The position numbers and the translations under genes were made by a program. Below the pieces are notes generated by a model. It did no database searches. It had not been told where the DNA came from and was given only the letters and a program-made list of their open reading frames with translations. From NCBI GenBank assembly GCA_030650275.1, contig JAUSEK010000015.1, positions 3,834 through 67,833 on the forward strand: a stretch of DNA of 64,000 bases. The letters run 5' to 3'. Shown one piece after another: positions 1-59,469 of the stretch. This stretch comes from Candidatus Omnitrophota bacterium (lineage in GTDB: Bacteria > Omnitrophota > Gorgyraeia > Zapsychrales > Fredricksoniimonadaceae). Position 1 is the stretch's first letter, and each line of letters begins with the position of its first letter.

Positions 1-3000
1 GGTCCATCGGCAGCCTCTACGCCAGCCGTGCCGGGAAGGGCGCGGGTGGGGTCTTTTTTATGTCCGTAGTAGCTATGTCTCTGGGCAAATCTATGCCAGT
101 TGCCCGGCAAGAACGACGCATCCAGTGTCTCCCGGTAATAGCTGGAAGACACATCCAGATCGATCCACGGATTCTGGATCAAATGCATATCGAGCTTCAC
201 CCGCTCATCCGCCGAGAGATCTCCTGCGCTAACCATCCGCCGCTGGATCTCACCGCGGATCGACAGGATCCCTTTAAGGACTGTCCTACTGCCTGCTCCA
301 TTCGCCACCAGCGGTATCTTGTTTATCTCCACAGCATCTCTGGCCTGAGCTGCGGCCGCTTCTTCATCTCCGCCCGCCTTCCTGGCATCTTTTCTCGCGC
401 TCTGCTCCGCTTTTGCCTTCTCACGCTCTATGTACTCATGCCGTCTCTGTAACTGCCCCGGGTCCAACTCCACATCCTGTAACCCCACAAACTCCCCATA
501 CAGCGCTCGCTGCATCCATCCATCTATGATCTGATGCATCCCATGGTTGATCGCATCTTTATACACATCCATTTTCCCTAAATGTTGCGCTGTATAATGC
601 CTTACTCTTTTTTCTTCTTCCGTACTTAACAAATACACTATTTCTACCCTGCGGCCGGTATTTAACTCCAGCAACCGGAGCATCTCTTCGAATCCTTCTA
701 TCTCACTATCCTCTTCACTGCCTAAATCTGTATACCTTAAGATCGGGAAGGTATCGCGGAACGTCTCTTGCGCCAATCTGTGTCTGTCCGCCGATGGGAC
801 CTGTGCGTCCGCGCTCACCTTCTTGTAGTCGATCTTCCCCTGGATCCTCATGACCACAAAATCCAGGCCCAACACATACGCTGACATCAATGCGATCAGC
901 GGATGGCCCCAGACCAGCGGATTCGCTGTGATCGGCAAATATCCTACCCGCAATGGCCTGCTTCTTAACTCATAGAGCCGCTCGTCTTGCACGTCTGTCC
1001 CATACTTCATCGTTCTAAACTTGACAAACGGCTCCGTCTTGCCTTCTCTGGCCTTTTGTGCCAAACCTTTTAGCGCCATTTCCATCGCTATATACAACCG
1101 TGGAACGAAGTGCTTGGATGTCCAATCTGTTCGCCCGGGGTTCTCTTCATAGAGACGCCTGATCTCTTTGACTTGTTCCCTTAGGCCATTCGTCCCTGAT
1201 TCAATCTCACCGCGGATATGTGCCCACACCGACTCCACCGCTCTCGCGGCCTCTTCCTGCCGATGTTCCAAATTCAAACTGATGTCCACACGCCCATTGC
1301 CAAACGGCAAGTCTGCCCATTCCCAAATACCATCAGTCACAAAGATAAACGTATATTGGAAGCCTTTGTTGACTTTAACTGTGGTCTCATAAATCAACTG
1401 TCCATTTCTCTCCCTTACAAACTTAAGCGGCCCACCCTCCTGCCTCCAATTCTGTTGATCCTGGTCTTTATTCGTATACAGCATCACTTCTCCCCGGAAG
1501 GTCTTCGCATACGTGACCGCCCTTAATACCACTTCATCCCCGGACAGGGCCTGTTTGTGCACTTCATCGATATATCCTCGCCTTAACCGACGGCCGATCT
1601 CCTGTTGCCGGGAAGTGTTTTCTCCCTCACTAAGGTTGAATTCAGGGTACGCGCCAATCTCATGACCGAGGCTCAAAACCTGTTCTTCGAGGGTGTTGTA
1701 ATCGGGATAGTTATTGCTGATGATGAGGTATTGCTGACCGTTGCGGGTGACAATGGTGGCTAAGAACCCTTTCACGGGACCGGCGCGGACCAGGCCGGCT
1801 ATGGCCATCTGTCTTAAACATTCGGCCATATGCGCGGCACCGATGGCTTCCAAAGCCCGGATCGCCAGTTTCACCGCAGCGCTGTTCTCATCCAAAACTG
1901 CGAAAGTATTGATGTCGTGCCGGCTCATTTCGAGGTCGACTTCCTCCTGGCTCAACAGCTCTGTGTCCGGTAAACGGCGGGTGGGGTCGCCGGTAGTATT
2001 GGCAGCATCAACGGCAACACTTTTTATGGTCCTGACGATATCTCTGTGACTAAACACCATCCTCATGGTGCTGTTGCCGCCCGCTGCATGGGCCAATTCG
2101 TCCACACTTGCCGCCTTGATCTCCGCCACCAAATTCCCGTCCACAACACCCATATCTGTCATCTTCCTGATGATACCGTCAGCATTCTCTTCCACCTGCA
2201 CGATGTAAACATCCACACTTTCACGCACAATACCCTGATGCTCATGCGAATACCGGTATATGTCATCTACAAATCCATCCATATGCCCTGGTATTCCTTC
2301 CTTAAGATGCGTCCCGGCCGAGATTGTGTTGTTTTCAAGCCACATATCGATCCCTAAGGACCTTGCCAGAATTCCGGGATCTGTCCCGCGCGCGCTGAAG
2401 AATGTGCGGCGCCCCTTGGCTGTTGCGGTGCCCTGGCCCCGAATATAATGGATCAGATGTCCTTCCTTGGACACGATCACGAAAACCACCCTCTGCTCCC
2501 AAGATCCTTGAGGAGCCAATGCTGCCGCGGATGGATCCGCGGATGCTGTGCTGGGCAAGGCAGGGGTGTGGGCGATGACCGATTGTGCAGCCGGCTTCTT
2601 GCTCCCCCACATCTCATGCTCAATCGCATATTTATACCAACGGGAAGGCAATAAGGCACTTGCTGCCGGGTGGCCCTCTTTTAACTTCTCCCGCAACAAG
2701 GTCGAGGAGATGTTTAAGTCCACATCCGGACCTTTGATCAAAAACATCGGGATGTCAGAGGTCGCATAAGCACTACCCATATCCTCCCGCGTAGCCTTGA
2801 CCGCGCTGTGGATCGTATCGATCCCTTTTAATGTCTTCGGTCTGCCGCTCCCATTGGTCAGCGGTATCCCTGCCTTAGCGTCATGCTCAGCTTTTTGAAC
2901 AGCTTCCTCTATTTGTACCGGTTCAAGACCAGATTTCTCTGCCTTTGCTTTGGCCTTTGCTTTTTCTGTAGCAATATACGCGCTTCTTTTTGCCAGCTGA

Positions 3001-6000
3001 TCAGCAGTCAACGTCACATCTGTTAATTCCACGAATTCCCCATACAAGCCTCTTTGGATCCAGCCCATGGAGATCCGATGCCGCTTGCTATCAAACCGAT
3101 GTAAATTCTTGCTCAACATCTCATAATGCAGGCGTATGTAATGCTCCACCCTTACTTCTGTCTCGGTGCTGAGCAAATACACAATATGCAGCCTGCGGTA
3201 TTTGTTCATCGCAAGAAGATTAAACATCTCTTCAAAGCCTTCCACCACTCTTTCTTTTTGCGTCCTAGGATCAATGGGCAGATCTTCACTGCCCAAACTC
3301 GTATAACTAAATACCGGCCGCAACCCTTCCCTGATATCCTCTTGCAACAGCCTATGCCGGTCTTTCTTGGGCGCCAAGTCCTCCGGGGCCATCGGCTTAT
3401 GAATCGCTCCCTGACCGCGTTTGACCAATCTATCCGCCATTACCTGATTACCGCTGGCCAACAACACCCACGGGTGACCATATACTTCAGGGTTAGCCGT
3501 AAGAGGAAAATACGCCACTGTCGCTTCTTTGAGCGGTACGAGCATAAAGAACATCTTAGTCAACCACTCAACCAGCCAGTTGCGCTTGATCAAACTCACC
3601 GGTGCAAACACGTTGATCTTCCCTTCCCTGGCCAAGCGCGCGCGTTGTTCTATGCCTTCCTGGAACACCCTAAAAAGATTCTCGGACACTATGCGCACTT
3701 CACTGCCTTCCGGCTCCTGCATGGCCGCCTCATAACCCGGCCTCATGTCTTCTTCTATGTACCGGGCTACGCGGTTGATCCTTTGCTCCTGCATGATCCG
3801 ATAGGATTCCCTCACAGCGCCGCGGATGCCTAACTCCGTCATCTGCTTGAATTTTAAAATGAATCGCACGCCGGCACCGACCCAGTCCGTGCGGGCTTCC
3901 AGCCGATGCTCGTATTGAGCAAACAGATGTTCTTCGTGCAGATTCTGATCGTGGGTGCCGTTGTTGCTTTCGTGAACAAGAGTGTAACTAAAGAAAGAAT
4001 TGTCGTTAATGGCGATCAGAATATACTCTAAACCATTGACCCGGACATGCGCCCCGTAGGCTGTTCCCATGGAACCCGCACGCACACGGCCGGCTTGCAT
4101 TAAGGCGCGCAACTTATCGGCTTTGTCTTTCTGTCCGGCAGCCTGATGATACAACAATACCTTTTGCGCGTCTTCCATCTGCTCATACACCGCCTTCCAA
4201 CCATGTCCGTGGATCGTGTTGCTTTCGATCAAGTGACGCGCTTCCGCTTCCACTTCACCAGCTGTATGGCCGGGACGGGGTTTGGCAGGATCGTTCGTTG
4301 TAGACGGCTGCCAGGTCCAATCGGATCTTTCACGCATTATTCTCTTAAAGTTTTCCGCAATGGTCTGTTCCTGCTCTGCTGTCAACGGCCTCTTTTCTCC
4401 AAAGGCAAACGGCAGGCCGCCCAGGGAATTTGCCCAACCCGCGGCCCCCATCAAGAGGTCCGACTCTTCCAAAAGGTGATAAACTCCACGACCAAACTGC
4501 GGGATGGTCGGCTGGATCGCCATCTCAAAGGTGCCGTCCTCGTGAATGCGCGCCACGATCAATGCCGTAAGACCGTGGCGATACATGTCCAAAATGTCCT
4601 GATGGGCCTTAAAGACGATCGCTTCCAGATCTTTTCCGAGATAAAAAAGCGCTCTGGCCGGCCAGCCGTTCAATTCGCCATAAACCATATCTTGACCGGC
4701 CGCTCCGGTCCGACGGAAGGTGACAAGGCCGGAATCAATGGCTCTCCAGAGCGGATTCCTCATCGGAGCTGAATGAGTATGCCAATGCCCTCCCTGGCTG
4801 GCCCCACCGCCCTGACCATTGGCCCAGGATTCGAACTCTTTACCGCGGGCGGCAGTAAACAACAAAAAGTCGCGCAGTCTATCAGCATCATCAAAAGTCA
4901 GGGCAACTCTGTCCTTGGCCAGCAGCATGATATGTCCCCGGGCCCACTCGCCGATCACCGTCGTTATGAAATATTCATGGCCTGTACCGCCCTTGGCAGG
5001 ACCGATGACCTGAAAATTTCTGCGCACATTAAAATCACACATGGGGCAATCTGTGTCCGGATGAGGAACATTGACCCTCACCCGCGACGCACCGGCATCT
5101 GCGGACTCCAGCGCTCTTATTTTCTGGGCTTCTGCATTTTTAGCCAGCGCTGCGGCTTCATGCGCCGGTGTGGCATAGCGGACCAGGATGCCGGTCGGTG
5201 TGCGGTGAGGATGGAAGACAAGGACCAGCGGAATGCCGTCTTCAGTCCTGATATCAACTTCATTGCTATGATCGAACCGATGGATCATTTCACCATCGGG
5301 GCCCATCTGCTCTGCGGCTGTTTCATAGCCCCTTTGGATCTCCGCGTCGGCAAAACCGACATTGTGTCTGGCGCGGGCCAGATCAATTGATGTCTGACGG
5401 CGATCACTTTCAACCGCGGGCGGCTGCCAATCCCAATCGGAAGCGTTGCGCATCATTTGTTCGAACCGGTCCGCCACGATCCGGCGTTGTGTTCCATCCA
5501 ATTCCTGGGCAGGACCAAAAGCATACGCCACACCACCCGGGATCCGGGAAGATCCGTTGCGGGTGGATATCAATTCCGGACCAAGCGGCTGCTCAAGCAG
5601 GTATGTTACACCGGACATGGCACCCAATTTTCTTGGACCGATCACCAGTTCATAAGTCCCATCATTCAATACACGGGCATTGATGGCGGGGGTGCTATTA
5701 TGATTATATAGATCTCGTAGATCTCTACTTGCAACCTGGACCAATTTTTGGACATTTTTACCTCTGTATATCCTCACTCTCGCCGGCCATCCCTCCATCT
5801 CACCGAACACCACATCGGATCCGAAAAATCCAGGATTCACAATAGTGACCTTACCGCTATCAATGGCCTTCCAAAGCGGAGAACGGAGCGCGGCGGAATG
5901 AAAATGCAGATGCTTGCCTTGTCTGGCGCCGCCCCCTGGGGCATTGGCCCAAGTTTCATGATCGCTGCCGCGTGCCGCGGTAAAGAGCAGCAAATCGCGC

Positions 6001-9000
6001 AATCTATCGGCATCAACGAACACCTGGGTGACTTTATTCTTGGCAACAGCCATGACCATCTCACGGCCATATTCACCGATAACTGTGGAAATAACGTACT
6101 CATACCCCACCGGGCCGACCGCGCGGTCCATGATCTGCCAAGGTTGTTTCGCATCAAAATTACACAACGAACAATCAGTGTCGGAATGGAGCATGTCAAC
6201 CGTTGTTGGTTCAGGCTGCCCATTACCTGCCAATGTCCGGCCCGGCAGGAAGGACAGCACGAACCGGACGCCATTTGTAGAAACAATTTCCACATCAGTG
6301 GAGGCATCATATGGATGGATGTTTGTTCCATCCGCGCCCTCTCTGGCCGCGGCGCGATCATAGCCATTGCGAATTCTCGCGGCAGCAAATCCTATATTAA
6401 CTTCAGCATCAGCCAAACTAATTGATGCCTGGTCTGCTTCCGCTTCCAGCCATCCCCTAGCTTTGTCTTCTCTGATAGTATTAGTTCCATCATCGTAGCC
6501 GAATGCGCTGCCGATCTCATGGGCGAGGCTCAAGACCTGTTCTTCGAGGGTGTTGTAGTTGGTATGGTTGTAGTCGGAATAATGGTCGCTGATGATGAGG
6601 TATTGCTGACCGTTGCGGGTCACAATAGTAGCTAAGAATCCTTTGACAGGGCCGGCACGGACCATGTGGTCTCTGGCCATCTGTCTTAAACGTTCGGCCA
6701 TATGCTGCGCGCCGATGGCTTCCAAGGCCCGGCTGGCTAATCTTACTGCGGCATTATTTTCATCCAGCACAGTGAAGGTATCGATGTTGTGCTGGGCCAT
6801 TTCAAGGTCAACTTCCTCTTGGGTCAACGGCGTTGTACCCGGCAAACCACGGGTCGGGTCATTGCGGGCCCCTCGACCATAAGAACCTTTCAATCCATAA
6901 GAAACATTTTTCAATAAACCAAAGGGTGTCAGAATAATACCTATAAGGACCAACGGCATTAAAGTCAGCAGCCCATGGATAAAGATCAGAAGCCGGTCAA
7001 TGCCTCCGGTCACCCGTTTCCCGTCCGTCACACGGACAGTCGTGCCGCTGACTAAAACCTTGCCCCAGTTTCTAAATTCATTAACCACGATCCCCAACCA
7101 CCCGAACAGGCCGACATCGTACGGCGTGGAACCGGGATTGTAGAATGTTGCCGAATAATACGTGGACAAGAAATACATAAACACCGGCCAGGACAACCAT
7201 TGCGAATCATTGTGATAAAGCCACAAGCCAAGGCCGCTAAATGCCATGCCCAGCAAAGCCGGTGACAGATGCGATCTCTCAAACGTTTCATACGTTGTCG
7301 GCTGCTGTTCATTAACAGCGTCATGAAGAACAAAATAGCGGTGTTCAAGGCCAAGCGTCCTGCCGGATCCCACGTATTTGGCATCGCCTCTCTGGGCCGT
7401 GTCCACGCCCTGCTTGTGGACGGAAACGAAGAACTGGAAGAATGGTGAGGTCATTAGAAGATATGTGACCCATTGATCAAATCCTGGGCTAAGCAGAATA
7501 ATGGCCAGCGGCGTGAAAGCCAGCAAAGAGATGGCCCCGTAATAGTATAGGCCTGATAACACAGCCAACTGGGCCAGGAACGGTACATAATTTCTCATTT
7601 GTATCCTGCCCAAATGAACGACCAGGATCGCAACAGCATAGGTTGCCAGAAGCGTCATCCACAGTGGAGCTGTCCCGAACATCATGACCGCCACCTTGCC
7701 AATAATAAACCACTGCACCGCCAGAGGGACCATTCTTCGTTTCTCGATCGTACCCAAAAGCCCGTGGTCAAAAATGAGCCGTACCAGCCCCGTCAACGTC
7801 GCGGCCTGGGAATAGATGATGCCGACAATGGCCAGCGATATTTCAAGAATGAACGCGGCAAAACCGCTTAAGCCCAGATAGACCAGGAATCCGGCATAAG
7901 AAAGGTTCGAGTTGTGCACGTGCGGCTCTTTGGTGTAGAAGCCGGTGCCGCCGAAGAAGTGCGTCAAATTGCGCAGGCGTCGGGTCACAAGATTGCCATA
8001 GACCGGTGCGTCCCTTAAATTTCTGGCCGGTTCAGAATGATATTGCTGCGCGCCGCCGCCGCCAAACTTGCTGTTCTTGGCCGCAACCCCCATAAGGCTG
8101 ACTTCACGGGCCTTGCCGGCCTTGGTATAGTAAATGAGCCTGACCTGCTTGCCTTTGGCCGTCCATTCATAGCCGGAGGGAATGTCTTCATTGACCACAT
8201 AGGCCTTGGTAATGCGGCCGATCATGTCCGTATAATTGGTGTCCCACCAATCCGGGTGACCATATTGATACCTCTGCTTACCAACCATGTCCTGGCTGGT
8301 TTGGACGACCAGGTTAAAGGTGCGGTCAGCATGCGCGTCAGCGGCGCCTTCGACAGAAATGTGCTCGGTAAAGATAAATTCAGGAAGCCCCACATTGATC
8401 ACATTGTTGTGTCTGAATTCCTGCGAGACATTAGGCGCCAGGAACGCGTCCTCGATGTAAACATCCTGGTTCTCATCCATGCCCTGCATATGCCGAACCC
8501 GGACAAACGGCTGCATGTTGATCTGGTTCGCCGGTTTGCCCTGGAAGGAAACCATCCTACCCGAATATTCCAAACGCATGATCACATGCGTCGGCTGACC
8601 CAAGGCATCGATGTCCCCTGCCCTGAAATAAACGCTGTTGCTGTTGGCGATCTTGTTGACCGTCTCCATATAAACGATTTCCAGATTGGAATAGATCTCA
8701 AACAGGCGAAGATAATGCGCCAGCAATTCCGGTCTGGCGGAAATGCCCTCACGCGGATTTCCAGCAATGCTTTCCCAGACCTGGAAGCCCAACAGCGGCT
8801 GGAATTGGTCTTGCACGCGCTGATGGACCATCGCCTGCCATGCCGCTTCGGAAGCATAGATGCTGCGGTCGTGGTAATTGATCTCAGCCAAAAACGTGAG
8901 GGCCTCTTCATAATGCATGATGCCGCGCACGGTGCGGCCGATGGTCTGGAACCGGGAAGCGGCCCACATCTGCACTTCAAATTTCACCCACGGATGTTGA

Positions 9001-12000
9001 ATGATCAACGGCTGTCCGCGTCTTAAATTCTCCATATTCTCCAAATCCCGCACGATCTGCGGATCCGTGACAAAACCATTGGCGTCCCTGCCGCCCGGAG
9101 CATCGTTATGGCCTCTCATGTTGATGCCTCTGGACAAACGCCGGATCACATTGCGCCACTGGTTCGGGGTCAGATCGATCATGTAAGTCAAATTCGTATG
9201 CCGGCCTTTGTCACGACGAATGTTGAGCTGGTCCAAAAGGAGATCTTCATTGGCATATTTGGGTATTCCCACACCGATGGAAATCTCATCAAAATCCGGC
9301 GCCTGTGGCATATCCATGGTGAGCTGTTCATAGATCGCATATATCCTGCGATAGACATCCGCATCCTTCGGGGCCTTGCTAAGATCGGGCCATTGAATGA
9401 TCACACCGTTGAGCCTGTCATTGCCAAGGCCTTCCCCTTTAATCTTGAATAAATAGGCTGCCAGCTGACCTTCGGACATTTCGTCTCTGATATTCATGCT
9501 TCTCATCTGGGCATTCCACCAGATGGCAAAGGCAATGTCTGTTTGCTGGGGCGTCAAGCGGCCGACGGATCCCGGCAAGACCTTGGTGACGAAATTCCTG
9601 CGCAAAGTGCCGCTGTGCATGGCCAGCCGCACCCTCCACCAAAATGGGAAGATGTGTTTACCGACATAGGCCAGTTTTCCGGCAGCGAGAATGGCCTGGG
9701 CCGCCTGGAACAAAGAATACAGAGACAGGACGTGATAGAAAATGAACGGCAGCCACAAGATCACCTTGGCCATGGTGCCGCCGACGAAATATCCGAGCAC
9801 GAACCAGCTGCCGAACACCAACGCCATCACCGGTAACGGGGCGATCAGGGACACAACGGCCCATGCCACGCCCTTCTTTTGGTCCCAACCAAAATTCTGG
9901 GCGATCTTAACTTTCAGCAGGATATAAACGAAAAAGAAAAGGATGCCATTCGAAGGCGACCGCAGATAACGCAGAAGTCCCGGGAAATCAATGTAGGCAA
10001 AATAGTCAACCGCATTGACCGCATCCAGGACGTAAGGAATGACATAATTGTTCCATTCATAATGAACAAAAGAAACAGCCGCCCAGACGAGGACCATGGT
10101 CAGGGTGTTCCAGAATTGTTTCGGGGCGGGGATGCCTTGGTAGGGCGGGACCGGTTTACCATAAAGTCCTGTACCGGCCGTTTTACTTCTGGGCGCTTGC
10201 CATATGTGTTCGATCACCTTGAAAAGAGCATAAAATCCGCCTAGGACCACGGCGATCTTGACAGCCGGACCCTGGCCGGCATTGTGCCAAATGGCGGCAA
10301 TGAACGTCAACGCCGCGTATTCATAAATCCCGATGTTGGCCAGGGTGGTCTGAATCCAGCCCTTCCAGCTCAAGGCCCCGCCCATCATTTCATTGTAGGT
10401 TTTATAAGGCGTCAGGTGGGCCGGAAAATTATTGCCTTGGGCTATGGTGGTGGCCGGGTCCCAATGAACGCCGCCGTTCCAATAATGAGCCAAATAAGCT
10501 TTGATATAATCAGGCGTCCTGAAAAGGCCTTCCATGTTGTCATGATTGACATATCCGGGCAGATAACCGCCTCTTTGCGGTTGGGACCGCATCCACACCG
10601 ACCATCTCCGGGCTTCGGCTTCGATCGCAGCGCGCACCTGGACCGACCGTCCTTCCGCAACCATGTGGCGAGCCAGGTGGAACAGGAACCATGTGACGTC
10701 GGAGGAAGCGCGCATTTCATCCGCGATCATCAGCACAGCGAAATAAATCCTGAGATCTTCACGGGTAAAGACCATGCCGCTCGCATCAATGCCCATGACC
10801 TCCCTGAGTAACCACAAATACCGTTCAAACAGATCCGGGGAAACCGTGTGGTTCGTCATCACGGCCGGAGCGCTCATCCGCTCACCAAGCGTCTTTCTGA
10901 CCTTCATTTCCATGCCGAAATGTTGGGACGGCGTCAAACCGAAGCTGGGCTCCAACGGCGCACCGGTTGAGATCTGCCGGAATGAAACCCTTCTGCCGGG
11001 ACGGGCCCCTCTGATGCGATTTATATGCTTGGCGAGCCAGCCGAGAAGGAAGGCGGCTGCGGCCGCTGCGACCAGCACTTTAACGAGCGTCAGCAGAACG
11101 GTGCCCTGCTCCTGTAATTCTTTTATCCAGCTGCTGCGCAGATCGGTGCGGACTTTGGGATTTTCTTTCGCCAATTCTCCGTTGATATACCTGTATTGCT
11201 GTTCATGCCAGACCCCCTGGATATTGACGCCCCCCGAAACAGGTTCTTTTTCATAGACCTGGACGGCGGTGGCCATGTCAAAATCGGTCCTGCCGAGATC
11301 GGCATAAGGAAGCGCCAGCGGATTGGGATCACCCTGGTCGGTATGGGCCGTAACCGCATATTCGGAGTGACGATAAATTTTGACCTTGTCCGTTTCTAAG
11401 ATCTGTCCAACATCGGCAGGCGCGGCCTGTTTGAGGACCAGGGCGGAAAAGACCGGGTTCTCAAATTCATTGATATATGTGATCTCATCCTTATAAGGAT
11501 CAATGAGGGCCCCCTGATTGAATACAGCCAGAGGCGTGATAATGTGCAAACCGGCTTCAAGAACTTTGCGCCCGGTGAAAAGATTATAGTAAACGGCCCG
11601 TTTGAACCGGTCGCCACGGACATCATAAGCCAGGAGTTTATTCCCACCGACCTCGGTAGTCCCCCGGAAGACCTCGCGCGTGGGGCCTTCCCCGCTACGG
11701 AACAGTTGAATGTTCTGCGGCATGATGTTGGACGAAGGCAGATCGGTCAAGGACACGATACTGCGCAGGTCCGCCGTAGCACGGTGCATCCACCAGGTAT
11801 TGATGGTCATGTTCCCGGCGGAGGTGATGACGGCCAATGAACGCCCGTTGCTGTCGAAACGACGCAGGACCTGAAACGAAGGCCTGGTCCACACCCCGGC
11901 CATGGTGCCGCCGAGGTTACGGGGCTGGTTCTGGTCACGGATCATGATCAGTGAGGTGTCCGGAGTTATGCCTTCCTGCTCAAGGTCCTTCCATAGGTCC

Positions 12001-39000: not shown

Positions 39001-42000
39001 TGTGACAACGTAAAATAACTGCCTGTCGAATTATTGCTGTAAAAATCTATACCTCCCCTGACGCTGTTGACCACGCCGCCACCCGCTACGCTGGACAAAA
39101 CAGGAAACAATTGTGAAGAAGAAATCTTGGCTACCATAGAGCTCCTGCCCAACACTCCGACCACAGGACTTAAAGCCACCGACCCTCCGGCAAAGGCTGC
39201 CGTGAATTTCGCGTTCGACTGCGCGCCGCCGATAGCAGCGGCGACGAGTTCATAACCATTGAATCTCGCGCTGGGATCCAGCATATATTGTGCGGCATAT
39301 CCTACCCCGCCTATGCCGGCACCGATCGGGACTGCCCACGCCACGGCTTTGCCCACGCCTGATATTGCTTTGGCGGTTGTGCCCATCTGTGCTATTTTCC
39401 CGCCGGTGGCTATTTCTCCGATACCGGTCACCATCAACGCCGTTGTCACAATACCAAAGGGGGTGGGATTTGTTACGTCGATAGCGTCCAATGTGTTATA
39501 GGACAGCCCCGTCCATTTGTGTCCATATACCTTAAGGGTGGTCATGGAACCGTTGCCCCAAATACCATTGGAAAAAAGAGCGCTGATGACACCGTTTCCT
39601 GTGTGGTCCTGCGTTATTCCGTGTGCGGTGGCTATCCACGATGTGCCATCGGCCGTTTTAAAAGGTTTGGTAGTTTCTCCCTCAACAACATCTTGCAATG
39701 TATTCAAATCCATGACATTGATGTTCTTCTGGACATGCTGTTCTGCCTTGGCAGATGCTTGCAACCAAGAAATCCCCGCCATATTCACTGCCATCATTGT
39801 CGGGAACACATTATTGAGCGCCAAATCTGTCGCGCTTCCCGTCTTTTCTGTGATCACATAGTGATCGTAATTGCCGGCGATCTCGCGTTCCTGACCTGTA
39901 ACAAAGTCCTTGATCTTCGCGTTAGTGATCGTTCCGTCATGTGCGACGTCCCTTATGACCGACCGCAGAAGCTGGCGGTTATCTCTATCTTGTGAGTCAT
40001 ACAGATTCCGTACTTCGTGGACATCCTGAACTGGATTGCCTAGTTTGTCATAACCGCGGCTTGTGACTGTGCTGATACGTTCAACAACGGTGCCGTTATT
40101 ATTCAGAACGGCATTTTCCGGGATCACCCGTGTGGAGGGGTGCGCATCATCCACAACACCGATAACTTGCGCATCTCCTTTACTGTTCAAAGCAAGACGC
40201 ACATCCCTTTGGGGGACATAATCGGAAGACGCATTCAGTTCGACGAATTGTATGCCTGCTCCGCCGGTATCAGCAGTTATGGAGTTGTTATAGTCCTTTT
40301 GCAACGCATCGACCTTGGCTTGTGCCAGTTTCAGTGCGGTCCCGTCACCCGTGTCGTCAACATATTCCTTGGATACGGTCCTTCCGTCGCCCGTCTTTAT
40401 CTCGATCGCGTATTTCTTGCGCGAAGAGGTTTCCGTCCCGATCAAAGCTCCGTCCCTGTCAAAACCCACGTTCTGGATACGGTTTTCACCATTGCCTATA
40501 AATAAATTGACCACCTGTCCATCCTGGACTTCTCCTCCGGTGTATCGGATTTTATGGACCTGATCGGGAGATGCTTCGATCTCATTGCCATTCCTGTCTT
40601 GATAAAAGACCTTGCCCTCGTCATTCTTTTTTTCATACCCTGGGTAGGAGTCTTGGTCCCCCAGCCGTACAATGGTCTCTACGAACGTCCCGACCTTTGA
40701 CCCGTTCGCATAAACCACATCCTGACCGTTCTCATTCTTAACAATGGCTGCTTGATGGCGGCCGTCGTACATCAGATCCGTGGTTTGCGCGACAGTTCTA
40801 CCGTTGAGGTGTTCAATATTCACGTGGGCAAAGATGGAAACGGGCTTTCCATTACTGTCGAGGGCTTCCCTGCTTTCCCAATAGCTGCCTCCAAGCGATA
40901 CCCTGTCATGACCCGAGATGTCCTTATAAAAATACGCGTCCACTTTTTGACCATTGACGATCGCCTTGGGGGCGCTCACGTCCGTGGTCCCGTCTTCTTT
41001 GATGGAAACAATGTATTCAACCGGAACGCTTTCATCCGGCGGCTGACTGCGCGGAACAATGACTAGCTGGCCTTCTGCGCCGCGGCGGGTCTCCGGCGGA
41101 GCCAAAACGCTGGAAGGCAGTGAATCAATTTTATGGATCGTGTTCCCCCTAAAGCTGTCCGTCGGCCCCAAGACCATCTGGCCTTTATCATTGATGCCGG
41201 AGGGAATAAGGGCATAGCTCAATTGATCGTTTGTTGTGCCCACATTGAACAAACGTGTATTCGGGCCGTATGGGGATGAATTGAATTCCTGCCCTTCTTT
41301 CCCTTTGTATTTATCCTTGATCGTATTTCTGGAGCTGCTTTCCCCTCCGGCATTGGCTTGCTCTTGCGTAGACCCGCTTAACTCGGGATGAAGCAGCGTG
41401 CCTTTAACCAAATTCAAGGCATATTTGTTTCGGCCCTCGACGCTCACCAGCCGGGTACCGGATATGGCCGCCGTATTCTTACCAGTAATGAACGTGCCTT
41501 CAGCCGCGGGGGCAGCGGCCCAATCCCATTGCCCGTCTTGAGTGGCAGCCCTTCCATGCATTTCCAAATCTTTAAGATATCCTAAGACCCTGGCAGTTCT
41601 CTTGGTCTTCTCGTCCGTCTTCTCTATAACACCGGGCATATCGGCTTTGATCTCACGGTCGTCCGCCTTCCATCCATTGCTCCACCGGATATCTCCACCG
41701 GAATGACGGACGAGGAACATCCCATCTTGAGCATACGCGGACAGGCTTTCCGTATGATAATATTTGTTAGTAAGAGGATTTTCATTCGGCGAGCCGTCTT
41801 TATTCAACGCGCCGGTCTTCTCATTCGTCACCGGCAGAGAATTATCACGCGTGATCCCGCGCGCGTACGCGACAAATTCGGGATTTTCTTCGAGGCCGTT
41901 GGGTGTCAGGGCAACTCGTTGTATGGCATTACCGCCGGGAACTTTGTCATCCACAACGCTGAACGCCTGTTCGTTGACAACTTTCACGCCAAAGATATCA

Positions 42001-45000: not shown

Positions 45001-48000
45001 CTGTCGCCCGCGCCCACGTATCTACTTAAAAGGTCCACGTTCCTATTGCCCTGGTTTAAGTGCGCGGTCGGGCCTTGGGAAGGCGTCCATGCGTAAGCAA
45101 CGTTTATGCCATGGTCGTCATTGCCACGAACGCTGATGTTTGTCCCCTGGCGCTGATAATATCCGAGTTCATCCAGGCCCAGAGGGCTTCCGCCGGTCAA
45201 AAGGACATCGGGTCCGCTTGTTAGGACAATGCTCCTGCCCTCTTTGTCTGTCACACCGTTTAAAATTTGACTGGATTCCACATTATTAAATTGCCAGATT
45301 CCTTTATAACTTGGCACATCCATCATGAAGTCCAATGTCTTTAACCCTTCGGTATCCGCAATATCAATCTTGGTCAAAGAATCATTGTTTTCGCCCCTGC
45401 CGTTGAATTTGCCGATGCCCCTTCCGACATACTGACCATTCTCTAAAGATTTGGCATAAACCAATTTAGTGTCGTGGCCCAAACTATTCACAGAGTGCCG
45501 AATTGTCCTGTAGATAAATCTCAAATCCATAAACTTCTTGGCACCGGCGCTTCTTTCATCCAGTTTTGCCGACACCGGAATTTCTATTGCCAGCGCCTTA
45601 ATGTTATCAATGACCGGATTGCCCAGAGAACTGATGACATGTTCCGTGTTGATGAGCCCGGGCGTCAGCAAATGGTTCTGGATGAGGGCGTATTGATACT
45701 GAAGTTCGAGGTCTTTCGGGGCAAGAGGGCCGCCGCCCTGATCATAGGTGGGAACGATGAGTCCGCCGGCCACGCGCGTATACGCGTTGACGTCGCCACC
45801 GGAGGCATGGTCGGCTTTAATGCTGTCACGCAGTTTATCCATCGCCAGCGCGTTCTGGGTGGTAAAGCCGGTGGCACTGCCGATCGTATCGCTGTAAGAA
45901 ACAAAACTTTTGACCGACCCCCAACTGCCGGTGCCGATGAATTGCTCCAGATACGGCGTGCCATACAAAGCATCCGTCCCCGGCTTCATATAGGTAAGGC
46001 CGGCCAGCCCCGCGGTTTGCCAAGGGCCCATTTTGGCACCACCCTGCGGTAGCGGCCCCACATTGCCCTCCGCATACCATTTTTCCTGTGCCTCTTGACG
46101 TTTCGCTTTCTCGTCCTTTACCGATTGGGGCTCTCTGTCCAAAGCAGTCACCAGCCCGCCCGCGGCCAAAGCCGTGGTGAAAAATAAAAGCGTGCGGATC
46201 TCCGCCTTTTTCTGGCGGTATGCGTATGATTTGTCATCCTTGCCGATTATAATCTGTTCCAACTGGTCAAGCCCCATGTACATCCCTGTGCGAACGGCAC
46301 CCTCAAGGAGCGCTCCTTCCAAGGACATCCGCCTGTCTTTGGACATCGCCGATTGCATCTCCAAACTCATGACCTGACTTAAACTCCTGGAGGCCGTGCT
46401 ATCGACCTTAAGGCCGGCCTTCAGCGCGAGCAACCTCACGCCCATGCCCGAAAATTGCCCGACCATGCCGGGCAATTCATTCCTCAAACCCGCGCCCATG
46501 GCAGCGCTGAAACTGTGGGGCACCCACTCACGCGGCGTATTTTTCAACGCACTGTTGTATGCTTCATTCGCGCCCGCATTCCACTCTTGCCGCTGATTGT
46601 TATCAATGGCTGGTCCGGTATGGTCGGCCTCATACTTGGCTTTGGCGTCCGCGGCCGCTTTCTCATCTTTCCAATGCCCCAAATCCTCAAAATCTTTAGT
46701 GCCGTGCATCATTTTATCCGTGACCTCGGCAAACGCCGTCAACGCCATGCTGGAGGCCAACGAGGAAGCCACCTGCGTGACCGCTTCCTTGATGATCGCG
46801 CAGGCCCCGTTGGAATCCTTGCAATCCATGGCCTTGTCAATGGCCCTGACCACCAGATATTCCGCCGTGCCTTTGACCGTCCCATACATCATCCCCTTGG
46901 CAAAGCCCTTGGAAAATACAACAATGGCCTGCGACGTAGTCATTGACGGCACTACCGGCACCGGCGGGACCTGCGGCACGGAAACCGGCGCTGATCCGGG
47001 AACCGCCTTGGAACCAAAACCAAAAACACGTTTAATGCCGCTTGAAATTTTATTAAAAAAAGTATTGATCTTCTGGCCCAAACTGGCAATGAAGCCCAAA
47101 AATCCCGTAGGCGCCGGAGGCGGAGGCGGCGGGGTCACCCCGGTCGCCGGACCCGTGACGGCCCCCATCCCGTAAGTGATGCCTGCCGAAAGGGCCGTGC
47201 TTAAAATAAACGCCCCCACCCCGTTGCACACGCCCGCCTGCACACACATCGTCGCGATGGCTTGGGAGATCTGCGAAGCCGTCATGGAAATAGCAAAAGC
47301 CATGGCCACATCAGTGCCGGCTTTGGCGGCGGTGCCGATACCGGCGGTGACCAGGGCAAGCCCCACATTCATGCCGATCTGCCCAAGGGCCGCTTTCCAG
47401 GTCAGGCCCGGCAGATCTTTGGAATTGTCGCGCCACCTGTCCCCCCAGACAAACGCCCTCAACGGCTCCGGCACTTCTTCAAACGCGATGCCCGCGGCTT
47501 GCCCTGAGCCTGGTCGAAGGGCCTTCACATCCTTGATATAAACGAACCCGTCAAATTTTTGAATGAACTCCTGTGCCGGCAAAGAACCCGCGATGCCGAT
47601 ATCATTAAAATACACCGTATCGTTCTTGACCGCGGTCACGGTCACAAAATGCTCATCCTGTAAATGGGCCAGAAATGGCGTTGGCAATTTGACCACATCC
47701 GCGGGTGTTATCTTCACGCTCTGATAAGAAACGCCCAGCGCCTGCGCTACTTTATCCAGAGCATACAGCGAAGTTTTTAATTTCAGATCACCAACCTTGA
47801 TGACATCGCTGACCAAGTCCACCGAAACAGTCAGCACAGCCAATTCTTCCACCGAACGCACAACGCCTTCGTGGTCCAAAATATCTTTCAGGCCGTAAAC
47901 AGCGCAATTAAAAGGATGGATCCCGGGCTTGCCCAGCCATTCGGTAATGGCGCGGATGCGTTCGCGGGTGAACGTGCCATTGGCCTCCAAAAGCAGCGCT

Positions 48001-48368: not shown

Positions 48369-48612
48369 GTTGATTCTGTCGTTTTGGCTCATTAGTTTTT
48401 GCTATTTTTTGGATAAAGGATTGTCAATAACTGAAGTATAACACATTATATATAAGCGGCAAATTTTTGCAAAATTTTTTACGCATTTATTTGCTTATAT
48501 TGCAATAGGTTACGTCTTTTCTCCAAAATTTTTTAAATATATTCCAAAACTTTGTTCTTATAAGTAATAAAAATATTAAGAAAGCGTTTTCTTTGTGAGC
48601 ACATGACTTACG

Positions 48613-48684
48613 GGAATTATGGGGACACAATACTTAATTCAGCGATCAAAGCCTAGGAATTAAGCATTATGCCCCCATAATTCC
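48613..48684. promoter_or_regulatory. 12-bp perfect inverted repeat GGAATTATGGGG / CCCCATAATTCC (48613-48624 and 48673-48684, 48-nt spacer) in the divergent control region. It is a candidate operator, for example for AbiEi autoregulation.
   Basis: Seen directly in the sequence. AbiEi antitoxins are known to autorepress via inverted repeats in their promoter, which is established knowledge. Confidence 0.4.
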
Positions 48685-48770
48685 AGAATGGAAATTATCA
48701 GAATGGAAACTTATGTGTGGAATTCAGATTGGAAATTACAAGAATGGAAGAAATATTGCTTGAATGGGGC
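48684..48770. repeat. Iteron-like direct repeats of (C)AGAATGGAA(A) at 48684-48694, 48699-48709 and 48741-48750, with variants GATTGGAAATTA at 48727 and TGAATGGGG at 48761.
   Basis: Seen directly in the sequence, upstream of abiEi. Confidence 0.45.
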
Positions 48771-48816
48771 TGTTCTGAATGAAGTGGCTATCATCGGATC
48801 ATATCTTAAATTATTG

Positions 48817-48845
48817 TTGCAATAATTTAACATTTATGTTATTAT
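48817..48845 (+). promoter_or_regulatory. Candidate sigma70-type promoter for abiEi: TTGCAA (48817-48822), a 17-nt spacer, then TATTAT (48840-48845). This would give a near-leaderless transcript.
   Basis: Hexamer match by eye only; no other support. Confidence 0.3.
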
Positions 48846-48851
48846 TTTGAT

Positions 48852-50290: not shown

Positions 50291-50307
50291 GACGCTGTCT
50301 CTGTTTA

Positions 50308-52215: not shown

Positions 52216-52569
52216 TCAGTAATACGGGTCGCTGTTGGGTTCGCGACAATTGCCGGAACATCCCTGGATAATGCCCGCTTCACACGCGGCAACATCAACA
52301 GCCGTGACGCAGGCGCGACGGCCGTTGTCGAAACAACGCTCATCATACCATGTCCTTGTGGCCGTATCGTGGGCGCACTCAACGGTGCGTTTGGGATCGT
52401 ATTGCCGGCCGAACGCAAAAGAATCGCCGGCGGTTTTCCATCGTCCGTAAAAGGCGCGCACAATAGGGCCTTTCATCCAAAACAGCGCCGCTAAAATGAT
52501 CGCGATCAAAAGCGCGTATTCAATGACGGCGCGACCGCGATTTCTAGCGACCCAGTGTGTTCTCATCAA
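52216..52569 (-). CDS. TadE-like pseudopilin with a class III (Tad-type) prepilin signal (…RGRAVIEYALLIAIILAALF…).
   Basis: 117 aa with an N-terminal G/xxxEY-type leader and a hydrophobic helix. Confidence 0.55.
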   Translation of the reverse strand: MMRTHWVARNRGRAVIEYALLIAIILAALFWMKGPIVRAFYGRWKTAGDSFAFGRQYDPKRTVECAHDTATRTWYDERCFDNGRRACVTAVDVAACEAGIIQGCSGNCREPNSDPYY

Positions 52570-58453: not shown

Positions 58454-58466
58454 GAAGTTCTCCCAG

Positions 58467-58655: not shown

Positions 58656-58702
58656 ACGCGCTCCCTACGATTTAGAAACCACTAAGGGACCCCCACCGGG
58701 GG

Positions 58703-59035: not shown

Positions 59036-59065
59036 AGAACATCCTCCTTAAGATACGATTTTATT

Positions 59066-59452: not shown

Positions 59453-59469
59453 TTATGGATGTTGTTTCT

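Follow-up and report, generated by a model that had tools for sequence, protein, structure and literature searches.

The sequence analysed here (the window) is a 64,000-nt stretch of a 175,125-bp NCBI contig, and most of it is occupied by one giant ORF read on the minus strand, as are all features below unless otherwise stated. This ORF extends from 48,392 to position 1 (75.6% of the window), comprises 16,130 codons from its first ATG and leaves the window at the left edge without a stop. A first-pass annotation had claimed a single uninterrupted ORF, 16,100 codons or longer, protein-like throughout and truncated on the left. In agreement with this claim, a six-frame stop scan found the frame free of stops from 48,401 to 1 (16,133 sense codons), as opposed to 460-1,103 stops in the remaining five frames, and the frame was still open at position 1, i.e., the gene extends beyond the window. 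The accompanying suggestion that the ORF track hid the gene was mistaken, since the lister by convention leaves out ORFs that exit the source end. A TAG at 48,402-48,404 lies immediately 5' of the open frame, and the first two ATGs are at 48,392 and 48,368. Because the first Met was an invariant column in an alignment with three homologs, 48,392 is the likely start. A candidate sigma-70-like promoter, a match to consensus found by a consensus scan (TTTGCA-17-TATAAT, 10 of 12 positions), is present at 48,445-48,473, about 50 nt 5' of this start. That the stretch is coding and not just open was evident when the flanking genes were used to train a codon model, under which each of 16 blocks of 1,000 codons scored best in the frame of the giant ORF. 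In addition, GC1/GC2/GC3 values (approximately 0.57/0.42/0.60) matched those of the flanks (0.56/0.42/0.68). Only four antisense ORFs of at least 300 aa were listed, none with a Pfam match.

The genes 5' of the giant ORF include a Tad/Flp-pilus-like cassette on the same strand. Region 61,484-63,978 encodes a DUF192 protein (Pfam E 9e-16) and a 718-aa fusion of a ParA/TadZ-like domain (AAA_31/ParA/CbiA, E ~1e-14) with a T2SSE/CpaF-like secretion ATPase (T2SSE, E 8.6e-59). Small ORFs are present at 57,712-59,724, two of them with weak, sub-threshold matches to Pfam Class_IIIsignal (prepilin-like); small ORFs with weak class III signal peptides were also seen in one relative, L001. Two conserved genes at 52,544-57,344 encode proteins of 1,032 aa (Cys-rich, 38 Cys) and 485 aa, neither with a Pfam match, and homologs of these were present upstream in 50 and 42, respectively, of the 56 relatives for which 5 kb or more of upstream sequence was available. 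Two T2SSF/TadB-TadC-type platform genes are also present (50,308-51,228 and 51,332-52,186; Pfam T2SSF, E ~2e-17 each), and in 51 of the same 56 relatives both precede the giant ORF. Between this cassette and the giant gene lies an AbiEi/AbiEii toxin-antitoxin pair on the opposite (plus) strand (48,852-50,290; Pfam AbiEii E 6.8e-27, AbiEi_4 23.8 bits), and the gap from T2SSF to the giant gene is 1,916 nt here, whereas the median in relatives is 857 nt. A homologous head, i.e., a TM helix followed by C39, opened the ORF in 79 species-representative genomes. The head-bearing ORF was open to the end of the available sequence in 75 of these 79 loci and unbroken in 44 of the 46 with at least 10 kb downstream. 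Judged from these comparisons, the locus type, a Tad/Flp-pilus-like (type II-secretion-like) cassette followed by a same-strand giant gene, is conserved and widespread. The link to Omnitrophota made in the first-pass annotation was borne out, as the proteins encoded on the flanks are identical to NCBI entries of a Candidatus Omnitrophota MAG, and Omnitrophota is the label of most of the 79 related loci.

The conserved head corresponds to aa 1-420 (47,133-48,392); in tblastn searches, 77-79 of the 79 related loci aligned over aa 1-400. Its layout is an N-terminal region, a hydrophobic helix (aa 46-64), a Peptidase C39 domain (approximately aa 150-290; 47,523-47,945; Pfam PF03412, 32.1 bits against a cut-off of 22, E 1.2e-7) and a conserved segment with the motif AFVWGDRW...LPGLL, with two further hydrophobic helices indicated by hydropathy peaks at aa 334-352 and 379-397. 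Invariant columns of the head were identified in a four-sequence alignment, and the C39 triad (Cys163, His248, Asp264) was invariant across the four sequences. An intact Cys/His/Asp triad and a PF03412 match above cut-off are shared with the C39 domains of ComA, LagD and NHLM-type bacteriocin-exporting ABC transporters, and a weak NCBIfam match was noted to the NHLP bacteriocin exporter peptidase region. In contrast with exporter C39, however, the head copy has no fused ABC permease/ATPase, follows a single hydrophobic helix and opens a giant protein. One might speculate that the giant protein is self-processed by this domain; no cleavage-site motif for such processing was identified.

The domain search of the product that the first-pass annotation had proposed identified C39 and GT48 above Pfam cut-offs and left approximately 95% of the protein without annotation (Pfam, NCBIfam and PDB). 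Only 10 cysteines are present per 16,130 residues, an approximately 30-fold depletion that affects Cys alone and is common to 52 relatives, which argues for selection on the protein. Very low Cys content and very large size are also seen in type 5 secretion passengers, TpsA and RTX adhesins, and T5SS proteins generally "have a low cysteine content" (PMC8151025). Unlike these proteins, the giant protein contains no beta-barrel translocator, TPS or RTX domain that could be found, and even its GT domain, which is necessarily cytoplasmic, is without Cys. Since cytoplasmic segments are also affected, an explanation of low Cys content by secretion competence may not apply. Features recognised in the body of the protein were a Gly/Ala-rich, glycine-zipper-like segment (aa 3,001-3,500; 37,893-39,392; 17.6% Gly, 14.2% Ala; weak Gly-zipper_YMGG match), a single TPR unit (approximately aa 3,604-3,649; 37,446-37,583; Pfam TPR_2 26.6 bits, just below the cut-off of 27, and PDB matches to designed TPRs) and, from the crude hydropathy scan used for topology, a cluster of 3-4 hydrophobic helices (aa 8,033-8,317; 23,442-24,296; Kyte-Doolittle peaks of 1.6-2.2). 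A P-loop NTPase region at approximately aa 4,898-5,330 (32,403-33,701) was apparent from motifs read in the sequence, i.e., Walker A PAGGGKTT (4,912), Walker-B-like FVIGDEPQ (~5,091), an insertion of approximately 210 aa and GLTATA (5,316). We take this motif order to resemble that of SecA NBD1 with its preprotein-binding insertion, and the region is possibly a divergent SF2/SecA-like motor. Pfam matches to the region were to ResIII/DEAD only and sub-threshold, with none to SecA_DEAD even at E up to 10, so that the SecA-like motor expected in such giant proteins received no confirmation from the profile search; an AF2 model from the single sequence had a pLDDT of 43, too low for use.

Located at approximately aa 12,430-13,820 (6,933-11,099) is a GT48 (FKS/callose-synthase-like) synthase module, supported by hydropathy, AF2 and Foldseek and arranged as about five hydrophobic helices, a cytosolic GT domain and about five more helices. 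The catalytic domain (aa 13,008-13,495; 7,908-9,371) matched Pfam PF02364 with 157.8 bits against a cut-off of 37.2 (E 4.7e-46) and, in a sequence comparison, FKS1 of PDB 7xe4 (E 2.9e-20). An AF2 model of the module from a 15-sequence alignment had a pTM of 0.66 and pLDDT of 80-95 in the GT core, and the best 13 Foldseek matches to this model were all FKS1/FKS2 (E 8e-24 to 1e-16, 1,000-1,170 aligned columns), with BcsA, HAS, Chs and CesA in a second tier. As judged from sequence and predicted model, the module is a complete TM-GT-TM GT48 unit of the FKS/callose-synthase type, with a fold, flanking helix bundles included, in common with fungal FKS1/FKS2 and plant/stramenopile callose synthases (CAZy GT48; PDB 7xe4, 8jzn, 9wzs). 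Residues at which mutation is known to abolish FKS1 function (PMC10499315) were invariant among 49 bacterial-type and 48 eukaryote-clade sequences, and active-site residues identical between FKS1 and the module were the E851 equivalent, K1082, D1102, N1104, E1155, H1195, E1221, D1222, K1246 and R1248, whereas D1080 is replaced by Q or E and K1172 by A in the bacterial clade. The module also differs from FKS and callose synthases in being bacterial and some 13,000 residues deep in a giant polypeptide, in the absence of an FKS1_dom1/accessory-domain match (a Rho1 partner would not be expected) and in being cysteine-free, as opposed to Fks1, which requires two extracellular disulfides (PMC10499315). 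The general mechanism, i.e., a cytosolic GT-A domain coupled with a transmembrane glycan channel, would be like that of the GT2 enzymes BcsA cellulose synthase, curdlan synthase and hyaluronan synthase, but its sequence places the module in GT48 rather than GT2, and no PilZ/c-di-GMP domain was identified anywhere in the window. Its closest relatives were pieces of very large proteins, the named ones mostly from Omnitrophota along with two records labelled Endomicrobiaceae.

Past GT48, the protein is modular, with repeated units designated D, U and V. The D domain is a recurring, uncharacterised unit of approximately 140 aa (consensus DPxRPLPG...RAGPxxGFLA...HEIGA). Copy 1 (aa 13,843-13,977; 6,462-6,866) was found with phmmer and jackhmmer, copy 2 (aa 15,467-15,598; 1,599-1,994) is approximately 75% identical to it, and repeat searches of the protein yielded a divergent copy 3 (aa 14,697-14,826; 3,915-4,304); at the DNA level, 6,567-6,860 and 1,695-1,988 are 80% identical. 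Chunked self-blastp revealed a tandem duplication of approximately 375 aa (aa 13,982-14,351 and 14,327-14,717; 4,242-6,449; 32-48% identity, E down to 8e-52), each copy with one CxxC (14,074/14,077 and 14,449/14,452), and a duplicated unit of approximately 350 aa (aa 14,906-15,266 and 15,766-16,113; 54-3,677; 34% identity, E 4e-19 and 7e-8), the copies of which flank D copy 2. Modular repeats run up to the window edge.

Giant genes of this class have already been described in Omnitrophota. Of 116 Velamenicoccia genomes, 77 carry ORFs longer than 20 kb (Seymour et al., 2023, PMC10066038). A clustering by Nielsen and Lui (2026, 10.64898/2026.06.07.730766) covered 5,761 Omnitrophota proteins of at least 10,000 aa, the largest 147,155 aa long, and a giant protein of 85,804 aa was reported by West-Roberts et al. 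(2023, 10.1101/2023.11.21.568195). With thousands of such ORFs published, the initial description of the gene as rare and among the largest was not upheld; a 16-kAA fragment is ordinary within this phylum. The published Omnitrophota giants, especially the cluster with C39-only architecture, resemble the window gene in phylum, ORF length (more than 20 kb), few annotated domains, poor conservation, C39 beside a hydrophobic N-terminal helix, multiple TM helices and a same-strand Tad/T2SS-like cassette upstream. The GT48/FKS module, the near-absence of Cys and the D domain are details not mentioned in the searchable text of these three reports, and the most interesting content is the embedded enzyme module, the type of which is otherwise familiar from the cell-wall glucan synthases of fungi and plants.

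We conclude, with a probability of roughly 0.8, that the window contains the 5' 48.4 kb of one genuine Omnitrophota giant protein-coding gene of the conserved Tad-cassette locus type. At the N-terminus of the product are a hydrophobic anchor helix and a C39 domain with an intact triad, followed by a fast-diverging, near-Cys-free chain with hydrophobic-helix clusters and GT48. An assembly artefact, i.e., a 48-kb chimera or repeat-collapsed join of unrelated pieces in frame by chance, is very improbable. The window does derive from a metagenome-assembled genome, diverged repeats are present in the C-terminal part and an independent Logan assembly (run SRR13727527) reproduced only 45,554-50,859, which includes, within the gene, just the first 2.8 kb, identical in both. 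However, an accidental stop-free stretch of 16,130 codons has a probability of approximately 1e-312 from base composition alone, tetranucleotide composition was homogeneous over bins (r = 0.73-0.93 with the window mean), codon usage was that of the flanks all along, no tandem repeats were found and the best DNA repeats were one of 294 nt with 80% identity and one of 60 nt with 87%. Moreover, the island at the TPR unit (aa 3,335-3,635) was collinear by tblastn in 7 other genomes, and aa 9,682-10,294, aa 11,785-12,200, GT48 and the D domain were matched island by island, in the same order, in an independent genome, that of Ca. Zapsychrus exili. Still more improbable is a non-functional, decaying ORF, a pseudogene-like filler open by chance or composition. 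This would fit the large fraction without detectable homolog or domain and the fact that aa 4,701-5,700 and the last 1,000 aa had no relatives among 5.8 billion proteins, but decay yields stops, of which there are none, and the codon-position signal throughout, the invariance of C39 and GT48 catalytic residues across relatives and the shared Cys-only depletion all argue against it.

Possible, though unlikely in its own right, is a fused operon in which the real units are several large proteins, encoded elsewhere by separate adjacent genes, joined here and split post-translationally or by internal initiation. Consistent with this, the homologous region of Ca. Zapsychrus exili consists of three tightly packed ORFs of 3,545, 2,761 (GT48) and 7,882 aa, the C39 head of L001 is a separate 1,251-aa gene, the ORF is interrupted in 4 of 79 relatives and the universally conserved C39 protease head would suit polyprotein processing. 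The breaks nevertheless resemble single lesions and not gene boundaries, being a G9 homopolymer in L001, a single TAG in L007 and, in Zapsychrus, a frame change with approximately 70 nt open in both frames plus a lone in-frame TAA, and the ORF is unbroken both in nearly all of the longer relatives and in the window. Such fusion is a refinement of the single-gene explanation more than an alternative to it. A more doubtful proposal is that the product is an "Archaeovorin" in the strict sense, i.e., an extracellular multi-enzyme protein that binds and degrades prey cell walls and exports itself by a built-in SecA-like motor. The P-loop motif order, presumably SecA NBD1-like, would agree with this. 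So would the N-terminal C39, the TM helices and the upstream T2SS-like locus, all of which are in the description of Omnitrophota giant proteins (10.1101/2023.11.21.568195). Against it are the missing SecA_DEAD match, the failure of Pfam and NCBIfam searches to find the defining GT5, GT1, methyltransferase, NUDIX, HEAT or glycoside hydrolase domains (apart from a single sub-threshold GH31 match) and the identity of the sole strong enzyme match, which is a polysaccharide synthase and not a hydrolase.

For the single giant gene that we favor, a function can be proposed at somewhat less than even odds. The product may be a megaprotein that spans the inner membrane multiple times and assembles or organises a coat or attachment structure outside the cell for contact with host or prey; a giant protein of V. 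archaeovorus was 3-fold up in prey-attached cells (PMC10066038). As a similarly tentative step, the GT48 module would use a UDP-sugar, most likely UDP-glucose, for polymerisation on the cytoplasmic side and pass a beta-glucan outwards through its own helix bundle. Extracytoplasmic stretches would, on this view, act as scaffold or adhesin. Because the GT domain and P-loop region must be cytoplasmic, however, a large part of the protein may go unexported, and the coat or adhesin reading is the weaker for it. Finally, and again provisionally, the C39 head could release functional pieces by cleaving the precursor or partner proteins. Relatives that encode the collinear architecture as several adjacent ORFs lend support to the idea of sub-fragments as the functional units.

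The first-pass annotation had described a giant, protein-like minus-strand ORF of at least 16,100 codons, and its presence was confirmed by a six-frame stop scan and by a codon model with the flanking genes as its training set. The frame was open from window position 48,401 to position 1 (16,133 codons without a stop), the number of stops in each of the remaining five frames over the same span ranged from 460 to 1,103, and the giant frame scored best in 16 of 16 blocks of 1,000 codons. Computed from base composition, the probability of a frame staying open for this length was approximately 1e-312, and GC content by codon position in the giant ORF agreed with that of the flanking genes. A TAG was noted directly 5' of the open frame (48,402-48,404) and the first ATG at 48,392. 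Because this first Met was an invariant column in an alignment of the window protein with three homologs, the start of the gene is taken, on the strength of that alignment, as 48,392, which would give 16,130 codons and 75.6% of the window; a promoter-like consensus site was found about 50 nt 5' of this start. No stop appeared before position 1, which bore out the claim that the ORF is truncated at the window edge. The empty ORF track, read earlier as hiding the gene, reflects a convention by which an ORF extending past the end of the source is simply left unlisted. An alternative genetic code was unneeded: the frame contains none of the three stop codons, and the genes on either side terminate normally. 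An exact 40-mer from the left window edge was absent from genome and metagenome contig collections, and a protein search with the last 1,000 aa of the giant protein returned neither homologs nor self fragments.

The link to Omnitrophota made in the first-pass annotation was substantiated by both the flanks and the relatives of the gene. Seven complete flanking proteins were present verbatim in a public collection, six of them as NCBI entries in the range MDO8675276-293 (locus tags Q7K71_*) titled 'MAG: Candidatus Omnitrophota bacterium', all from a single contig of 175,125 bp, and the other, of 1,032 aa, as a Logan record with an NCBI entry as its cluster representative; phylogenetic marker genes were absent from the window. 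Most of 79 loci with a homologous head (aa 1-420 of the product) were likewise titled Omnitrophota or Omnitrophica, the rest including 20 auto-labelled 'uncultured Planctomycetales' and single Elusimicrobia, Caldithrix and plain 'bacterium' records. Giant ORFs of more than 20 kb, with few annotated domains and poor conservation, have been reported in 77 of 116 Velamenicoccia genomes (PMC10066038), and the window gene, of which 48,392 nt are visible as a single ORF, shares their size, host phylum, paucity of domains and poor conservation. An N-terminal C39 peptidase, many transmembrane helices and a T2SS-like locus adjoining the gene have been described for Archaeovorin-type giant proteins (10.1101/2023.11.21.568195), and the window protein has a similar N-terminal C39 domain near a hydrophobic anchor, many predicted transmembrane helices and a T2SS-like neighbour. 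A further compilation contains 5,761 clustered proteins of at least 10,000 aa, the longest of 147,155 aa, and includes a cluster of C39-only architecture (10.64898/2026.06.07.730766). The window gene is therefore a further example of the Omnitrophota giant ORFs already described, and its identity as a real giant gene of this family is assigned a probability of roughly 0.9. It follows from the same reports that the gene is not near the size record, contrary to its earlier placement among the largest, and that such genes are not rare within Omnitrophota as had been supposed. The existence of the gene is in itself not news, this being one more among thousands catalogued.

Assembly of the 48-kb span from unrelated or collapsed sequence was considered and is judged highly improbable. 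Tetranucleotide composition was homogeneous over 4-kb bins, and window positions 45,554-50,859 were recovered at 100% identity in an independent Logan assembly of run SRR13727527. Tandem repeats were not detected by TRF. Direct DNA repeats reached at best 80% identity over 294 nt and 87% over 60 nt, at a spacing of about 4.9 kb, and the repeat units are insufficiently alike at the DNA level for collapse. The order of conserved islands along the gene was also identical in an independent genome, that of Ca. Zapsychrus exili, which argues likewise for a single contiguous giant gene.

A word-indexed protein search with the first 1,200 aa identified only three homologs, all with C39 domains; the 79 loci with a homologous head were found when a single genome from each GTDB species was scanned with a pattern from the head alignment. 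Behind the head, the ORF was open to the end of available sequence in 75 of the 79 (up to 4,657 aa) and likewise in 44 of 46 loci having at least 10 kb downstream. Similarity to the window protein by tblastn extended over aa 1-400 in 77-79 loci but over aa 600-1,000 in about 12, and further collinear islands were few (aa 1,459-1,938; aa 3,335-3,635 in 7 loci; aa 5,069-5,311 in one). The region common to nearly all relatives was confined to aa 1-420; the family thus combines a conserved head with a body that diverges very fast.

Breaks in the giant ORF were noted in several relatives. In locus L001 (JGI Ga0105164_10000021, near 13,740) the break was at a G9 homopolymer, the next frame being open, in locus L007 at a single TAG, and in locus L045 at a frameshift in a T-run. 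In locus L082 (Ca. Zapsychrus exili JAVCCJ010000121.1) one junction between ORFs, at about 10,000, was a frame change where both frames stay open for approximately 70 nt, and the other was a single in-frame TAA at 18,284-18,286. Each break is a single lesion, which could be a sequencing error or a real site of slippage, phase variation or readthrough. A module resembling FKS and callose synthases (GT48), which is at aa ~12,432-13,820 of the window protein, was carried in Ca. Zapsychrus exili by an ORF of 2,761 aa between same-strand ORFs of 3,545 and 7,882 aa, and window islands aa 9,682-10,294, 11,785-12,200 and 12,932-13,558, together with a repeated C-terminal module termed the D domain, appeared there in the same order. 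The contig of this train of ORFs agrees in length and organism with that of the C39-headed locus L057. If the train has the orientation of the record, the C39 start and the GT48 domain would be separated there by about 13,800 codons, as opposed to 13,008 in the window, and the train would span about 24,000 codons. On this basis, a total of roughly 20,000-25,000 codons would be predicted for the window gene.

Upstream of the giant gene, and on the same strand, was a cassette resembling Tad and type II secretion loci. It contained two T2SSF genes (TadB/TadC-type platform proteins) and a DUF192 gene, each recognized by Pfam, a conserved gene for a protein of 1,032 aa (52544-55642) and another for a protein of 485 aa, both lacking a family match, and small pilin-like ORFs with weak class III prepilin-type signal matches. 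The secretion ATPase gene (61822-63978, minus strand) encodes a single protein of 718 aa in which a T2SSE/CpaF ATPase (aa 365-642; Pfam E 8.6e-59) is fused to a ParA/MinD/TadZ-like P-loop domain (aa 4-184). In classical Tad loci, the ParA/TadZ-like protein and the T2SSE/CpaF ATPase are encoded by separate genes. Apart from this fusion, the cassette shares with the Tad/Flp system its core set of CpaF/TadA ATPase, TadZ-like ParA and TadB/TadC platform proteins. No secretin (RcpA/CpaC) or prepilin peptidase matched in the window, which ends (64,000) just past the ATPase gene, and evidence for a Flp pilin within these same bounds was limited to the weak class III signal matches. Both T2SSF genes preceded the giant ORF in 51 of 56 relatives with at least 5 kb upstream, and homologs of the 1,032-aa and 485-aa proteins were present in 50 and 42 of these loci, respectively. 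An AbiEi/AbiEii toxin-antitoxin pair (48852-50290, plus strand) separates the cassette from the giant gene. Since the length of this gap varied among relatives from 225 to 5,721 nt (median 857), the site looks like a variable insertion spot. Two other features of the cassette were noted. The 1,032-aa protein is strikingly rich in Cys (38 residues, 3.7%), the opposite of its giant neighbour, and a 438-aa ORF within the cassette (59979-61295, minus strand), absent with this start as an exact sequence from the protein collection, had HTH_32 as its sole family match, which suggests a transposase-like or regulatory insertion.

Approximately 95% of the giant protein was dark to searches of Pfam (with 5,000-aa and 1,000-aa pieces), NCBIfam and PDB sequences, and whole-protein sweeps of the latter two collections returned nothing besides TPR, C39 and FKS1. 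Confident domains were limited to the C39 peptidase and GT48. The C39 domain (aa ~150-290; 32.1 bits against a Pfam cut-off of 22) was preceded by a hydrophobic helix at aa 46-64 and shares with the C39 family both Pfam membership and the catalytic Cys/His/Asp set (C163, H248 and D264, all invariant), but is without the fusion to an ABC exporter, no ABC transporter domain being detected by Pfam in the giant protein or elsewhere in the window. A single TPR unit (aa ~3,604-3,649) scored slightly below the Pfam cut-off, and GH31 was represented by a sub-threshold match at aa 11,349-11,462. A P-loop region was marked by a Walker A motif (PAGGGKTT) at 4,912, FVIGDEPQ at about 5,091, an insertion of approximately 210 aa and GLTATA at 5,316, an order of motifs that we take to recall SecA. 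In motif order this region resembles SecA, a divergent DEAD helicase form of which, with a preprotein-binding domain, characterizes Archaeovorin-type giant proteins; SecA_DEAD (PF07517) was not matched at E values up to 10, the matches there being sub-threshold ones to ResIII/DEAD, a protein search with aa 4,701-5,700 returned no homologs and a single-sequence AF2 model of the region was unusable (pLDDT 43). The GT5/GT1, methyltransferase, glycoside hydrolase, NUDIX and HEAT domains that recur in Archaeovorin-type giant proteins were not found in the visible 16,130 codons of the truncated gene (1,000-aa chunks, Pfam and NCBIfam), the nearest signals being the sub-threshold GH31 match and GT48 itself, nor were Pfam matches corresponding to those of the dockerin-type giant protein. 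Kyte-Doolittle hydropathy indicated about 20 peaks of at least 1.5 in five clusters, with sites at aa 46-64, 334-397, 8,033-8,317, 12,432-12,891, 13,508-13,820 and 15,832.

The GT48 domain matched '1,3-beta-glucan synthase' (PF02364) over aa 13,008-13,495 with 157.8 bits against a gathering score of 37.2, and a PDB sequence search aligned it to residues 684-1,272 of yeast Fks1 (E 2.9e-20). When compared with the Fks1 active-site residues whose mutation abolishes function (PMC10499315), the window domain was identical at K1082, D1102, N1104, E1155, H1195, N1220, E1221, D1222, K1246 and R1248, and E851 was conserved after local realignment; substitutions were D for E1173, Q for D1080 and A for K1172. 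Among 1.84 billion representatives searched exhaustively with HMMER, 613 relatives were identified, 50 of them at E < 1e-30. The closest were partial sequences of very large proteins (up to 7,886 aa), often spanning whole contigs, and those with names were from Omnitrophota except for two records labelled Endomicrobiaceae; eukaryotic callose/FKS synthases entered the match list from about E 1e-28. In a comparison of 49 bacterial-type with 48 eukaryote-clade sequences, the equivalent of E851 and residues K1082, D1102, N1104, E1155, H1195, E1221, D1222, K1246 and R1248 were invariant, gaps aside. Because the catalytic residues are invariant, GT48 is, by the measure of these alignments, under strong purifying selection inside proteins otherwise diverged past recognition.

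The GT domain was flanked by about five hydrophobic helices on either side, as judged by hydropathy. An AF2 model of the module from a 15-sequence alignment had a pTM of 0.66, with pLDDT values of 80-95 in the GT core and weaker values in the membrane parts. The best 13 PDB matches of this model by Foldseek were all FKS1 or FKS2 (E 8e-24 to 1e-16 over 1,000-1,170 aligned columns), followed by BcsA and hyaluronan, chitin and cellulose synthases. From these results, the module has the appearance of a complete processive glycan synthase embedded in the membrane. It shares with FKS/callose synthases PF02364, the active site and placement of the GT domain between transmembrane bundles, the membrane part of the model being of low confidence, but the N-terminal accessory domain and Rho1 regulation of these enzymes have no counterpart in the window module. 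Rho1 is a eukaryotic protein, and neither FKS1_dom1 nor any other accessory domain was detected by Pfam upstream of the module.

When 97 GT48 domains were placed in a rough NJ tree, rooted at the midpoint and without an outgroup, the 48 eukaryote-clade sequences formed one cluster, nested among several long-branched bacterial clusters from giant proteins. Origin was checked for four members of the eukaryote clade, of which three were eukaryotic and one was a cluster labelled 'archaeon' in NCBI. GT48, FKS or glucan synthase was not mentioned in the main text or searchable supplement of the Omnitrophota giant-gene papers, a literature search found no paper that brings GT48 and Omnitrophota together, and the accessible part of a published GT48 phylogeny discusses only eukaryotic groups. 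One reading, rated as unlikely, is that Omnitrophota giant proteins harbour a deep, diverse bacterial clade of processive glucan synthases of GT48 in which the eukaryote-type active site is complete. If true, GT48, which eukaryote-focused phylogenies treat, in their accessible parts, as eukaryotic, would gain a bacterial sister or source lineage, and the giant protein would by itself be a machine for envelope building, extruding a beta-glucan coat or tether while in contact with the host. The bacterial GT48 clade, if unreported, would also bear on the origin of the fungal and plant glucan synthases, the targets of echinocandin antifungals.

The window gene gives concrete handles on the function of Omnitrophota megaproteins. 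A tentative scheme, held at somewhat less than even odds in each of its parts, is that the product would be a multi-pass inner-membrane megaprotein, the cytoplasmic parts of which might include the P-loop region and GT domain, with extracytoplasmic parts possibly forming a scaffold or coat. The GT48 module, as predicted from its sequence, may polymerise a UDP-sugar and extrude beta-glucan, and the C39 head may cut the precursor or partner proteins. Since relatives have split versions of the gene, sub-fragments are suggested as the working units. By analogy, the megaprotein and the Tad-like apparatus might serve attachment to host or prey cells; in V. archaeovorus, a giant protein was up 3-fold in attached cells and a role in attachment was proposed (PMC10066038). 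The GT48 module of approximately 1,400 aa, with its intact active site, could be expressed separately and would then provide the first biochemical activity for an Omnitrophota giant protein, which would show whether these ultra-small episymbionts make beta-glucan, and the universally conserved C39 head offers a direct test of polyprotein processing.

A marked depletion of cysteine was noted in the giant protein, which has 10 Cys in 16,130 residues (0.06%) as opposed to 1.87% in the flanking proteins and none between residues 532 and 14,073. Those in the head were the catalytic C163 and the pairs 383/389 and 524/531, and those after the Cys-free stretch were CxxC motifs at 14,074/14,077 and 14,449/14,452, one per tandem unit, and C15,525. 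Among 52 relatives, the Cys content of C39-headed ORFs past residue 1,000 was 0.029%. All other amino acids were at 0.74-1.33 times their flank values. Avoidance of nonsense mutations was rejected as the cause of the depletion, since stop-adjacent codons made up an equal fraction in the flanks, and Trp and Tyr were normal. With the other amino acids near flank values and stop-adjacent codons undepleted, the composition so argues for selection against cysteine itself. Substrates of type 5 secretion also have a low Cys content, disulfides hindering their export (PMC8151025), whereas in the present case the GT domain, which necessarily faces the cytoplasm, is without Cys as well. This 30-fold, family-wide avoidance suggests that the making or export of megadalton polypeptides is physically constrained and, if it holds across the phylum, a Cys-free composition would be an additional unexplained design rule. 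Cysteine is not mentioned in either Omnitrophota giant-gene preprint and, together with the D domain and the bacterial GT48 clade, this cysteine desert is absent from the literature searched.

A chunked self-search indicated that the first ~10,000 aa of the protein are non-repetitive and that diverged repeats are confined to a modular part comprising the last ~2,300 aa. Copies of the D domain of ~135-140 aa and about 75% identity began at aa 13,843 and 15,467 (6462-6866 and 1599-1994, minus strand), with a divergent copy at aa 14,697 (3915-4304, minus strand). On the same strand, a tandem unit of ~375 aa occupied aa 13,982-14,351 and 14,327-14,717 and a duplicated unit of ~350 aa occupied aa 14,906-15,266 and 15,766-16,113. 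The D domain, with the consensus DPxRPLPG...AGLIRAGPxxGFLAT...YIxLS..YPxYNT...SLxHEIGA...FNxSHxEN, was present in 2-3 copies per giant protein and was also found in eight other proteins (P0064, P0070, P0082, P0106, P0107, P0129, P0046 and P0011). Its occurrences included proteins of 321-877 aa, one of which carries it beside a phosphomannomutase/HAD domain. No relatives were found in Pfam or PDB, matches of a D-domain profile to PDB being at chance level. A metal site may be marked by the signature HEIGA...SHxEN.

Local differences in composition were noted elsewhere in the protein. A Gly/Ala-rich, glycine-zipper-like stretch (17.6% Gly) was present at aa 3,001-3,500 (37893-39392, minus strand), and a stretch rich in Arg, Glu and Ala (12.8% Arg, 10.8% Glu) at aa 4,001-4,500 (34893-36392, minus strand) resembles a coiled coil or a disordered region; in both, GC2 was locally up and GC3 locally down. 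Antisense to the giant gene, four ORFs of at least 300 aa were listed. These were rejected as genes, having no family matches and being placed in a shadow frame that is stop-poor along the whole gene (7-28 stops per 1,000 codons). The largest, of 572 aa (31374-33092, plus strand), is opposite the P-loop region, is likewise without a family match and is most likely a shadow ORF.
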